Part shown: piece after piece, positions 34,628 to 61,191 of the stretch
Numbering within the stretch: position 1 is the first letter of the stretch
How the letters are laid out: each line of letters starts with the position of its first letter
Virus record (IMG/VR): IMGVR_UViG_3300048121_000993
Location: 1-64,000 of that record
Length of the DNA: 64,000 nt
Direction: 5' to 3' (one strand)
From: a virus
Taxonomy: Duplodnaviria > Caudoviricetes
Made by a program: the position numbers and the translations under genes
Notes under the pieces: generated by a model
Database searches by the model: none
What the model was told of the DNA's origin: nothing
What the model saw: the letters and a program-made list of their open reading frames with translations, nothing else

Positions 34628-34791
34628 TGGGATACGATTATTACGATAAAGATGCAGTCTTTAATTCGTATATAAAAGATCTGGCTTTAGAGGAAACTTT
34701 AGAGTTTGACCCTCCAATCAAAGAAGGGACACTAGGACACGATATTTTTGATAAAGTAGTGCAATTACATGAGCAAGTTACTGAGTCATAA
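34627..34791 (+). CDS. Small hypothetical protein (54 aa, not in ORF track)
   Basis: TAATG overlap; MGYDYYDKDAVFNSY...EQVTES. Confidence 0.5.
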   Translation: MGYDYYDKDAVFNSYIKDLALEETLEFDPPIKEGTLGHDIFDKVVQLHEQVTES

Positions 34792-34812: not shown

Positions 34813-34888
34813 GCCGGTATAGCTCAGTTGGTAGAGCAACTGATTTGTAATCAGTAGGTCGAGTGTTCGAATCATTCTACCGGCACCA
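34813..34888 (+). tRNA. tRNA-Thr(UGU)
   Basis: Cloverleaf, anticodon arm ctgat-TTGTAAT-cag, TTCGA T-loop, encoded CCA. Confidence 0.95.
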
Positions 34889-57203: not shown

Positions 57204-57305
57204 TACGTTATAACTGAATTTGTTCACAAATGTGGATAAATAATAATGTGTACAACAGGACTGATTCCTACCGTATACATAGAACGCCGAAAGGGTTCTA
57301 AATAA

Positions 57306-58650: not shown

Positions 58651-59067
58651 ATGAAAATAGGATTTACATGTAGTACATTTGATTTGTTACACGCAGGTCA
58701 TATAGGCATGCTCAGAGAAGCAAAAGCAAATTGTGATGTTTTAATTGTAGGATTACAAAGTGATCCAACTATTGATCGCCCAGATACAAAGAATAAGCCT
58801 ATACAAACAATGGTAGAACGTTATGCACAACTCAATGCATTAAAATTTGTAGATGAGATTGTACCATATCAAACAGAACAAGATTTAATTGACATACTGG
58901 AACTGTTTCAGTTAGATGTTAGATTTTTAGGCGATGAATATAAAGAAAAAGAATTTACTGGAAAAGATGTATGTCGTAAGCGTGGTATTGAGCTACACTT
59001 TAATAAACGAGATCATAGATTCAGTACAACAGATTTAAGACATAGGGTATGTAAAAATGAGAATTGA
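58651..59067 (+). CDS. Cytidylyltransferase (TagD-like)
   Basis: FDLLHAGH (HxGH), VGLQSD, VDEI, FSTT. Confidence 0.88.
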
Positions 59068-60166
59068 TCAAGACATTAAACTAGACTACAGTGACGTTTT
59101 AATTCGTCCAAAGCGTAGTACATTAAGTTCACGCAAACAAGTAAGACTTGAACGCAAGTTTAAATTTAGAAACAGCAGACACGAGTACGAAGGTATTCCT
59201 ATTATGGCTGCTAACATGGATGGTGTTGGAACATTTGAAATGGCAGATGAACTTGCACAACAAAATATATTTACATGTTTAGTAAAAACATATTCAGTGG
59301 AAGAACTTGTAGATTTTTTTAACAATGATTATCCGGATAATAGAAGAACACAAAACATTGCTATGAGCATTGGTACAGGAACAATAGACTTTGATAAGTT
59401 AGAAGCTGTGTATAATAAAGTAAGCAATAAACTAAAATATGTATGTATGGATATTGCAAATGGTTACAGTGATCACTTTGCACAACATGTTAAAAAAGTT
59501 CGTAATGCATTTCCTAATTTAGTAATTATAGCAGGTAATGTAGTAACCGGAGAGATGACAGAGGAGTTAATTTTAAATGGAGCAGACATCGTTAAAGTCG
59601 GAATTGGACCAGGAAGCGTGTGTACAACACGAATCCAAACAGGAGTCGGGTATCCGCAACTTAGTGCAGTCATTGAATGTGCAGATGCGGCACATGGACT
59701 TGGTGGACATATTATCGCTGATGGGGGCTGTAACTCTAGTGGTGATGTGGCTAAAGCATTTGCTGGCGGCGCCGATTATGTAATGCTAGGCGGTATGCTT
59801 GCAGGACATGATCAAGGTGGCGGCGAAGTTATTAGTAAGATGTATGCAACCAATGAATGGCTTACAGCAGAAAAGCCAGTACTTGAACAAAAACAGTTTG
59901 TGGCTTTTTACGGAATGAGCAGTGATGCTGCAAACACAAAACACTTTGGAGGACTAAAAGACTATCGTGCAAGCGAAGGACGAGAAGTATTAGTTCCATA
60001 CAGAGGTGCAGTACAACACACCGTACAAGCAATCTTAGGTGGGTTGCGTAGTACCTGTACATATGCAGGTGCAATGAAACTTAAACAACTTAGTAAATGT
60101 ACTACGTTTGTTCGCGTTAACAATCAGTTTAACAAAACATACGAAAGCACAACAACTAAGATTTAG
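59057..60166 (+). CDS. guaC: GMP reductase
   Basis: [41 protein letters not shown]. Confidence 0.95.
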
Positions 60167-60289
60167 CTATGTTGTACATGCATAGCGTCTTTGCAGCAGA
60201 TAAGTAAGTGATTCTGCGGTATTATAGATAAATAGATGTGTAATAAAAATGGCACAATGTTGTGTTATAGTTACATGTACAAAGTAGTA

Positions 60290-60456
60290 CAGAGCGACCT
60301 CGGCTCAGAAAAAAAGAGCGGCAGTTAGTGCCACGCTAACTGACTCTGGGAAAGACCAGGGCATAACCCATGCCTTACAAGCGATACATTATGAGGTATC
60401 GTGGTAGCGGCCAGGAGAGACTGGCAAATAACGGATGCTTTCCCAAAAACATCCAC
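60290..60456 (+). ncRNA. Candidate structured RNA (seven consecutive hairpins, possible long-range pairing)
   Basis: GC-enriched intergenic segment with stacked inverted repeats, downstream of ATAAATA at 60228-60234. Confidence 0.55.
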
Positions 60457-60477
60457 ACATATAACGGAGAATATAAA

Positions 60478-60684
60478 ATGGCTAACACTTTTTTTAGTGC
60501 ATGGTCGGGATTATTCAATGGCTCACGTAGAAGTCGTGTGGCTTACAATAACACCCTAATGACTTATGCAAAAACAGAATATGGTTCTGATTGGCAATAT
60601 GCCTACAACTATATGCTAGAACACAAAGGATCTGCACCAAAGATGGGTCTTGCAGATATCAATATCAAGGCAGCAGTAAAATGA
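60478..60684 (+). CDS. Small hypothetical protein
   Basis: GGAG SD; YAKTEYGSDWQYAY. Confidence 0.7.
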   Translation: MANTFFSAWSGLFNGSRRSRVAYNNTLMTYAKTEYGSDWQYAYNYMLEHKGSAPKMGLADINIKAAVK

Positions 60685-60866
60685 CAACAACATTAATATA
60701 CAAACAAACATGTAGTGTTTGTGAAAAAATTAAACAAGCATCATTAAAAGTAATGATGGCTATTTGGTCATTTGGTGAATCGGCAGGTCGTGCAAGAGCA
60801 GCCGCTGAATTACATAGACAAGGCTACACAGAAGAAGCAAAAAAACTAATGCTGGAGAGTAGATAA
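60681..60866 (+). CDS. Small hypothetical protein
   Basis: ATGA overlap; GRARAAAELHRQGY.EEA. Confidence 0.7.
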   Translation: MTTTLIYKQTCSVCEKIKQASLKVMMAIWSFGESAGRARAAAELHRQGYTEEAKKLMLESR

Positions 60867-61057
60867 TGATTAATACTATAACAAACAAATTAAGTTGGTT
60901 AAAACGTGCTTATACAAACAGTCAAGGACGCAGAGCAACTGAAAAGGCTTTGTCGGAATTAAACGACTTTGAATTAAATGATATTGGATTATGCAGAGGC
61001 GACATTAGATCAGTTGCTCGCGGTGATCTTAAAGCATATAAAAGATCAGTTAAGTAA
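60866..61057 (+). CDS. DUF1127 (YjiS-like) small protein
   Basis: RRAT..ALS.LND..L.DIGL.R.DI signature. Confidence 0.85.
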   Translation: MINTITNKLSWLKRAYTNSQGRRATEKALSELNDFELNDIGLCRGDIRSVARGDLKAYKRSVK

Positions 61058-61191
61058 TGTTTAAAAAGTTTTTAAAAGCAATGGAATACAGAAGTTATTG
61101 CATGAGCATCAGGCAACTTCGTCAATTAGGCGAACATGAAAAAGCTAATGAAATTTCTGAATATAAACATAAGATGTATAACACATTTTAA
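61057..61191 (+). CDS. Small hypothetical protein (44 aa, not in ORF track)
   Basis: TAATG overlap; MFKKFLKAMEYRSY...RQLRQLGEHEKA. Confidence 0.6.
   Translation: MFKKFLKAMEYRSYCMSIRQLRQLGEHEKANEISEYKHKMYNTF

Follow-up and report, generated by a model that had tools for sequence, protein, structure and literature searches.

CcaF1, a DUF1127 protein, binds the ccaF1-CcsR transcript that encodes it and influences how RNase E processes this RNA (PMC8034643), and in Sinorhizobium a DUF1127 gene is regulated via its leader (PMC12218461). For viruses, a 2023 survey of IMG/VR yielded 8,495 candidate structured RNAs, including cis-regulatory ones located upstream of phage genes (PMC10690425). Here we describe a structured RNA encoded within a stretch of 64,000 nucleotides (nt) of DNA from a virus of the Caudoviricetes (positions 1 to 64,000 of the IMG/VR record IMGVR_UViG_3300048121_000993), referred to below as the window. 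The record from which the window was taken is 86 kb in length, with an estimated completeness of 24% (CheckV). The RNA is encoded in the gap at 60167–60477, which lies between a GMP-reductase/IMPDH-type gene and a row of four overlapping small genes. We conclude that positions 60240–60477 constitute the 5' leader of a presumably late-transcribed microprotein operon from an uncultured large marine phage, and that this leader belongs to an RNA family outside Rfam. Our leading model, which we advance tentatively, is that the leader serves as a cis-acting platform for protein binding, by which a product of the operon regulates its own expression.

The leader is enriched in G+C (43.6%, rising to 49.1% in its core) relative to the window (34.7%), as the first-pass annotation of this DNA, made from the sequence alone, had pointed out. 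That annotation had also described seven hairpins, all of which were recovered at the same coordinates by direct reading and by re-derivation, and had noted that two of them have purine loops and swapped stems, as they do (CTGG-GAAAGA-CCAG and GCCAG-GAGAGA-CTGGC). When folded, the + strand at 60235–60480 reached −75.7 kcal/mol, compared with −53.5±4.4 kcal/mol for shuffled sequences (z −5.05, none of 200 shuffles being as good); the hairpins therefore exceed what is expected by chance. The corresponding z value for the − strand was −2.72. RNAfold predicted two further hairpins at the 5' end of the leader, in addition to the seven already described.

The leader is a conserved folded RNA that is shared by many uncultured giant marine phages. 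Loci encoding a homologue of the first small protein of the operon (the first-gene family) were found at 191 places in IMG/VR and at no fewer than 503 places (at least) in marine metagenome contigs, and among 185,579 species genomes at three places only, all of them on contigs of marine metagenome-assembled genomes (MAGs). These three contigs (L264–L266), one of which is 335 kb in length, are labelled Flavobacteriales and Candidatus Neomarinimicrobiota, carry both the operon and the RNA, and are probably giant-phage DNA that was binned with bacteria. The 199 family genes preceded by 200 nt or more of sequence (13 others had too little and were skipped) yielded 102 distinct 330-nt upstream sequences, and 101 of these carry the 3' domain of the element, 25 in the form found in the window (type A) and 76 in a second form (type B), with junction sequences that differ between the two; the only one without the element is L221. 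Departures from the common arrangement are seen at L152, whose type keeps the hairpins P4 and P5 only and is missing P1–P3, and at L056, where the element lies 5' of a different small gene. No match to the leader (distant blastn) or to the surrounding 7 kb was found at the DNA level among GenBank phage records, nor did tblastn match the 68-amino-acid (aa) first-gene protein to any of these records.

When all 74 distinct cores were aligned together by MAFFT and analysed with RNAalifold, almost no structure emerged because types A and B were misregistered, and the two types were therefore analysed apart. For type A, a plain MAFFT alignment was made of 22 distinct promoter-to-ATG sequences, drawn from the 25 distinct upstream sequences, with L190 left out as its upstream sequence was too short to include the promoter. 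For type B, a covariance model (R1) was seeded with the 24 of 67 distinct cut cores that aligned without gaps, and was then re-run on 54 type-B and intermediate sources, giving 53 distinct rows; 15 type-A rows (including that of the window) and the L152 row were excluded from the type-B counts. The type-B alignment, being fitted to a model, leans toward structure. In type A, 97.1% of cells were paired and 20 of 51 pairs showed two-sided changes, values that none of 500 shuffles reached and that compare with 25–37% of cells paired in slid controls. In type B, 97.9% of cells were paired, with two-sided changes in 17 of 26 pairs, and again none of 500 shuffles reached the observed result; over the two types together the slid controls ranged from 25 to 40% paired. 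In both types the G-U pairs fit the + strand only. On the basis of these counts we consider hairpins P1–P4 and the hairpins 5' of them to be real, and covariation among homologues, which the first-pass annotation had named as a check on its candidate RNA, is thus present. P5 showed two-sided changes in none of five pairs in type A, where it never varies, and in none of six in type B, where it varies in the outermost pair only; it is thus conserved in sequence, and its stem is a predicted one. Model R1 misaligned P3 and P4 of type A. It gave a single match in each of 70 sources out of 72, the exceptions being L221 and L021, and it matched all three MAG loci; in the window it gave a single match (60341–60456; 23.7 bits, E 0.0017 in 309 kb), which was also the only one in the 86-kb record.

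The matched region, encoded on the + strand as are all features of the leader described here, forms the core of the element, in which the conserved order is P1, P2, the junction UUACAAG, P3, P4 and P5. P1 (60346–60359), with which the core starts, consists of a stem and a GAAAGA hexaloop closed by a G-C pair; its loop reads GA(A/U/C)AGA across the family, and its stem covaries in both types, with two-sided changes in two of four pairs in type A and in three of five in type B, where it is 100% paired. P2 (60360–60374; GGCAT/ATGCC) does not vary in type A (none of five pairs) and shows two-sided changes in all five pairs in type B. It is followed by the single-stranded junction TTACAAG (60375–60381), nearly invariant in types A and B, and by the 6-bp hairpin P3 (60382–60401; CGATAC/GTATCG), with two-sided changes in six of six pairs in type A and five of six in type B; P3 varies in sequence, number and loop, and is missing or duplicated in some leaders. 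P4 (60410–60425) carries a GAGAGA hexaloop closed by G-C on a stem with two-sided changes in four of five pairs (type A) and four of four (type B), and its loop reads GAGAGA, GGAAGUU or AAAAGA within the family. P5 (60433–60454; GGATG/CATCC) presents the pyrimidine-rich loop CTTTCCCAAAAA; its sequence is highly conserved, the family form being a predicted stem GGAUG/CAUCC (or GG-A-UGC/GCAUCC) with a loop CUUUCC.... Some 10–14 A/C/U-rich bases separate P5 from the Shine–Dalgarno sequence (SD), which in the window is GGAG at 60466–60469, 8 nt before the ATG at 60478. In 73 of the 74 distinct cores, a distance of 18–30 nt (median 24) separates the 3' end of P5 from the AUG. The type-B P4–P5 region is invariant across sequences, while the proteins of the family are about 34–67% identical.

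P1 and P4 are copies of one module, which we define as an N-A-N-A-G-A loop closed by G-C on a stem of 4 bp or more. The module occurs once in 64 of 87 distinct leaders, twice in 18, three times in 3, four times in 1 and not at all in 1. In the window, searched on both strands, the only modules are those at P1 (60344–60361) and P4 (60410–60425), 1.56 being expected per 64 kb on both strands.

The part of the leader that lies 5' of the core differs among lineages. In the window it begins with the two hairpins added by RNAfold, of which Ha (60249–60268; 8 bp), in a variable 5' part, shows two-sided changes in five of eight pairs among the 22 type-A sequences and is missing in some relatives, and Hb (60276–60291; 5 bp) shows them in two of five, with 100% of cells paired in type A. 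In Hc (60292–60306; GAGC/GCTC) one of four pairs changes from G-C to A-U in 4 of the 22 type-A sequences. An A-run follows Hc and then a second GAGC (60316–60319), a possible alternative partner; the alternative GCTC/GAGC helix stays paired in type A only by means of wobbles. Hd (60322–60342; 9 bp) is an insertion in part of type A, absent from 6 of 22 sequences; in the remaining 16 none of its nine pairs varies, and its U-G pair fits the + strand only. Other candidate helices gained no support. The closing helix predicted by RNAfold (60236–60241/60455–60460) had no two-sided change, its second pair was broken in 11 of 22 sequences, and it is located at or before the expected transcript start. 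A helix between the P2–P3 junction and the spacer before the SD, seen in one minimum-free-energy structure, was lost in variants, as judged by eye. A putative long-range AAGYGAU:AUUGCUU helix around P3–P4 is compatible with 96% of cells, but as it is invariant on the 3' side it scores the same as shuffles.

At gathering thresholds, Rfam 15 identified four transfer RNAs (tRNAs) in the window and nothing else. With E values up to 10 allowed, the region 59900–60800 gave four chance-level matches far under the gathering score, the sole one inside the core being on the − strand; another, PK-PYVV (60194–60238), touches the first bases of the leader. Membership of a Csr/Rsm or cobalamin family, raised in the first-pass annotation, is not supported, with no Rfam match even at E up to 10. 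The broader proposal made there, of an uncatalogued, conserved multi-hairpin RNA heading the downstream small-protein operon, is borne out by the lack of an Rfam match, the linkage seen in 101 of 102 upstream sequences, and the covariation. Literature searches on DUF1127 and phage, CcaF1, structured RNAs of marine phages and pelagimyophage revealed no description of the leader RNA in those parts of the papers that were accessible. The term DUF1127 does not occur in the main text of the 2023 survey (PMC10690425); the leader RNA may be among its unnamed candidates, listed only in the supplements.

The leader is preceded by the motif ATAAATA (60228–60234, + strand), which we take to be a T4-type late promoter, the T4 late-promoter consensus being TATAAATA. 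The motif is found at the same place before every related leader inspected, of types A and B alike, and a transcript start would be expected a few bases 3' of it. In the window, 23 of its 27 copies are on the + strand and 4 on the − strand, several of them directly 5' of genes or tRNAs: copies at 34788 and 38674 precede tRNA genes (at 34813 and 38698, respectively), and those at 57236 and 61212 precede protein genes. The motif is rarer in the window than chance would give (27 observed, 41.6 expected) and is strongly strand-biased. A second motif, TGCA-N9-TGCA (TGCATAGCGTCTTTGCA, 60178–60196), lies approximately 35–75 nt 5' of the late-promoter motif in types A and B, and is kept at the same place in L003, L019, L014, L101 and L050 despite their differing upstream genes; possible identities are an operator, an element of another class of promoter and the end of the upstream transcript. 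At the type-B loci L101, L047 and L100 a promoter of sigma-70-like type (TTGAT.-N17-TATATT or similar) shares part of its sequence with the late-promoter motif, which suggests that stacked early and late promoters may drive one leader in these loci; the upstream region in the window is without a good −35 hexamer.

The gene upstream of the gap (59057–60166) matches Pfam IMPDH (E 1.7e-71). Downstream, on the + strand, the overlapping row comprises genes encoding proteins of 68 aa (60478–60684), 61 aa (60681–60866), 63 aa (60866–61057) and 44 aa (61057–61191), of which the third is a DUF1127 protein (E 7.2e-08) and the fourth has no Pfam match. The first-gene protein matched none of the Pfam, PHROG or NCBIfam models, and the ESM Atlas gave no usable match to it. 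Its family, in which AKTEY..DW.YAY is an invariant motif, comprises 481 clusters in a collection of 5.8 billion proteins, all of them named hypothetical protein at most, and an AlphaFold model of the window's protein shows two main helices and a short third, with a weak predicted local distance difference test score (pLDDT 65). The related operons form a microprotein cassette made up of the first-gene family, DUF1127, DUF3563 (E 1.6e-09 to 3.2e-06), for which a literature search returned no papers, and three unnamed families. Downstream of the RNA at L016, L019, L078, L100, L128 and other loci, the cassette families seen are DUF1127, DUF3563 and those recognizable by ..FGESAGRARAA.EL.R.GY.., ..YEPGDHY.RGK.VAFWKG.. 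and MEYRSYCM; gene order and number are variable, and there are some fusions (L128, 81 aa; L056, 87 aa). Small proteins with arginine-rich stretches are among the operon products.

The leader is represented in RNA libraries. Part of the stretch was present in 20 sequencing runs, 16 of which are on record as RNA, and four metatranscriptome runs (X2, X3, X7 and X8) were examined. As these data are contigs, they can do no more than hint at starts, ends and levels, and parts that are not covered provide no evidence. The contigs of the four runs cover 60271 to approximately 61100. X2, X3 and X7 have no cover at 60130–60267 and low cover of the upstream gene, and X8 has an 8-kb variant contig that extends across the gap; a 588-nt contig (60271–60823) ends in adapter sequence approximately 12 nt before 60271. 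The contig data are consistent with a transcript that starts just past the promoter and with a leader no less abundant than the genes. In all four runs summed contig depth was by far greatest (171–1422) at 61050–61141, at the start of the 44-aa gene (MFKKFLKAMEYRSYCM...), where there are many variant contigs and joints; the 44-aa protein recurs in related operons and seems to represent a microprotein family, unmatched in Pfam, that is very widespread and highly represented.

Our current working model is that a small RNA-binding protein would recognize the repeated hexaloop hairpins together with the conserved P5 domain beside the ribosome-binding site, that the operon itself probably encodes this protein, for example as the DUF1127 protein or the first-gene protein, and that its binding would determine how the operon mRNA is translated or processed or how stable it is. 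Two to four core hairpins present the N-A-N-A-G-A hexaloop, and P5 places its invariant pyrimidine-rich loop approximately 24 nt before the start codon. A module repeated with identical loops, an invariant P4–P5 domain and a constrained spacing to the AUG argue for a protein that acts in cis at the ribosome-binding site. A mechanism involving RNA only is not visible, since there is no terminator-like site on the + strand of the leader and no consistent pairing of the SD. We place autoregulation first because DUF1127 proteins are documented to bind RNA on their own transcript, and hold it to be the best of the available explanations while giving it something less than an even chance. Several observations weigh against it. 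DUF1127 was not found in 5 of 17 representative first-gene-family operons (L101, L050, L100, L078 and L178), counted over the first two to five genes, depending on the reach of each locus or scan, and is therefore not a universal partner; all five show DUF3563. The first-gene protein is without a known RNA-binding fold, its structural model being a weak one. The SD is neither consistently sequestered nor consistently exposed (mean unpaired probability 0.38, range 0.05–0.8, over 87 predicted ensembles), and conserved junctions with covarying stems are also typical of a ligand-binding aptamer. Finally, contig depth, itself a poor measure, falls from 5' to 3' among contigs with at most one letter differing from the window (162, 103, 60, 20 and 11 in X2; 481, 155, 95 and 26 in X3), and such a fall also fits a separately stable leader RNA.

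A stable RNA of this kind is the basis of the explanation that survives best after autoregulation, although we regard it as unlikely: the leader would be cut off, or would survive decay of the mRNA, to become a trans-acting small RNA (sRNA), a viral counterpart of the CcsR/cuckoo sRNAs that derive from DUF1127 transcripts. The pyrimidine-rich P5 loop (CUUUCC..) might then serve as an anti-SD seed, or the purine loops as a protein sponge. The array of hairpins is co-transcribed with DUF1127-type small genes, as it is in the CIN1 loci (PMC8034643); the invariant pyrimidine loop is displayed on a stem, the linker between P5 and the SD is A/U-rich and single-stranded, and the depth of exact-match metatranscriptome contigs drops from the leader to the distal genes. 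However, the element lies 5' of the genes and not 3', contigs cannot reveal the ends or levels of an RNA, and the constrained spacing between P5 and the AUG argues for action at the leader's own ribosome-binding site. Moreover, gene starts in the window show no enrichment of sequences complementary to the P5 loop, with three GGGAAA sites preceding open reading frames (ORFs) of at least 50 aa.

An explanation that needs no specific partner, and that seems to us improbable, is that the leader is a passive structure, with hairpins that block 5'-end-dependent decay or that serve as a ribosome standby site or enhancer. It would account for the 5'-proximal hairpins directly after the predicted start, for the A/C/U-rich unstructured spacer before a strong SD, and for an RNA-library representation that is high relative to that of the upstream gene. 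Nevertheless, loop positions A2, A4, G5 and A6 and about 40 nt of P4–P5 are fixed while the stems drift, and passive stabilizers need no such constancy. Equally improbable, in our estimate, is a more elaborate variant in which the viral RNA has two functions: as an mRNA leader it would head a set of very small RNA-binding proteins (DUF1127, DUF3563 and the three unnamed families), and, once processed with the aid of these proteins, it would also be an abundant late-infection riboregulator which, by means of its SD-like purine loops and anti-SD-like P5 loop, would redirect ribosomes or host RNA-binding proteins. If this were true, some of the largest phages in the ocean would carry a counterpart, in inverted form, of the alphaproteobacterial CIN1 system.

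We think it slightly less probable still, though more so than the proposals that follow, that the core is a riboswitch, that is, an aptamer for a metabolite or ion that controls translation of the operon. The highly conserved junctions and loops (UUACAAG and the P4–P5 region), flanked by covarying stems in a 5' leader close to an SD, are what such an aptamer would show. Yet the architecture is modular, with P3 absent, single or duplicated, P1–P3 lost in the L152 type, and junctions that differ between types A and B; no expression platform is seen, there being neither a terminator nor consistent SD pairing; and the genes hint at no ligand and no Rfam riboswitch is matched.

The first-pass annotation had also proposed a possible switch or pseudoknot, in which, as considered here, the P1 loop (TGGGAAAG, 60347–60354) would pair with the P5 loop (CTTTCCCA, 60438–60445), as a pseudoknot or an alternative fold, and gate the SD. 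The exact 8-nt complement on which this was based is present in the window, and over the P1:P5 pairing and the alternative GCTC/GAGC helix taken together 96% of type-A cells can pair. GAAAGA is also kept in P1 more often when the P4 loop is without GGAAG (5 of 7 compared with 12 of 46 leaders), a figure uncorrected for relatedness and to be taken as a lead only. However, type A is uninformative as the pairing never varies there, with no two-sided change, and in type B the third base of the P1 loop is mostly U or C while its partner stays U, so that the centre pair is broken, uncompensated, in 37 of 53 rows. The P5-loop variants TAACCATAAA, TGTCCTTAA and TATTCCTCAA are likewise without compensation in P1, and 438 of 500 shuffles reach the observed type-B value, the helix being no better than shuffles. 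Furthermore, three of the eight P1:P5 pairs require the stem of P1 itself to be opened, and 394 of 2000 mononucleotide shuffles of the leader (about 20%) contain a perfect 8-nt complement by chance. For these reasons the switch is largely refuted and is rejected as a family-wide feature; that it operates at all is very improbable. That the region is not a structured RNA, being instead an N-terminal coding extension or a set of chance hairpins, can practically be dismissed: an in-frame ATG at 60370 inside P2 does give a 104-aa ORF (60370–60684) open into the first gene, but there are indels of −2, −1 and +4 nt among close relatives, type-B leaders carry stops or are without the ATG, and the substitutions compensate one another in stems instead of being synonymous.

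The RNA is widespread and strongly constrained, the operon that it leads occurring at 191 IMG/VR places, at least 503 metagenome places and in many metatranscriptomes, with neither a catalogue entry nor an isolate. It ties a structured leader to microprotein families whose role is only emerging (DUF1127, DUF3563 and unnamed families), and a system as compact as this one, of about 115 nt and proteins of 50–90 aa, could be used to test microproteins as RNA-binding regulators and to study late-gene control in giant phages. The covariance model and alignments would permit the RNA family to be catalogued.

Of the described systems that the leader resembles, Csr/Rsm RNAs (CsrB, RsmY/Z) share with it a GGA at the boundary of stem and loop (GGAAAGA in P1; GGAGAGA or GGGGAAG in P4) and an SD nearby; the conserved loop positions here, however, are A2, A4, G5 and A6 and not GGA, other copies reading CAAAGA or AAAAGA. 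In lambdoid phages, the boxB element exposes a purine-rich GA.A-type loop on a short stem and is bound by the small, basic, arginine-rich N peptide. The short stems with a purine-rich GA.A-type loop, and the arginine-rich stretches of the operon proteins, recall this arrangement. Compared by loop length and closing pair only, the GNRA-like pentaloop of boxB differs from the hexaloop closed by G-C found here; neither a boxA nor an N homologue was noted, no search for the latter having been made, and there are no terminators to read through, the copies being located in the translated leader of a T4-like late transcript. Operators of T4-like phages, such as the gene 32 leader pseudoknot and operator hairpins, are likewise conserved leader structures thought to bind the product of their own gene, whereas their sequence, architecture and gene family differ from those of the leader. 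A further parallel is with the CIN1 loci of Alphaproteobacteria (the CcsR, cuckoo and NfeR sRNAs, Rfam ar14 and relatives, and CcaF1), where short hairpins are likewise arrayed, with a recurring loop motif, on one transcript with very small proteins including DUF1127 (PMC8034643), and the presence of a DUF1127 gene (60866–61057) in the same overlapping gene row extends this likeness to the phage locus. In cuckoo, CcsR and ar14, each unit has two hairpins whose loops contain CCUCCUCCC (PMC8034643), whereas the loop here is the purine-rich N-A-N-A-G-A; the cuckoo loop motif CCTCCTCCC, with up to one mismatch allowed, has no match in the whole window. The phage element also differs from CIN1 in having no Rfam match, in its host, which is a phage, and in its constant neighbour, which is a different small protein, DUF1127 being absent from some operons. 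Finally, the CIN1 RNA comes from a 3' untranslated region that RNase E processes (PMC8034643), whereas the phage element lies 5' of its genes.

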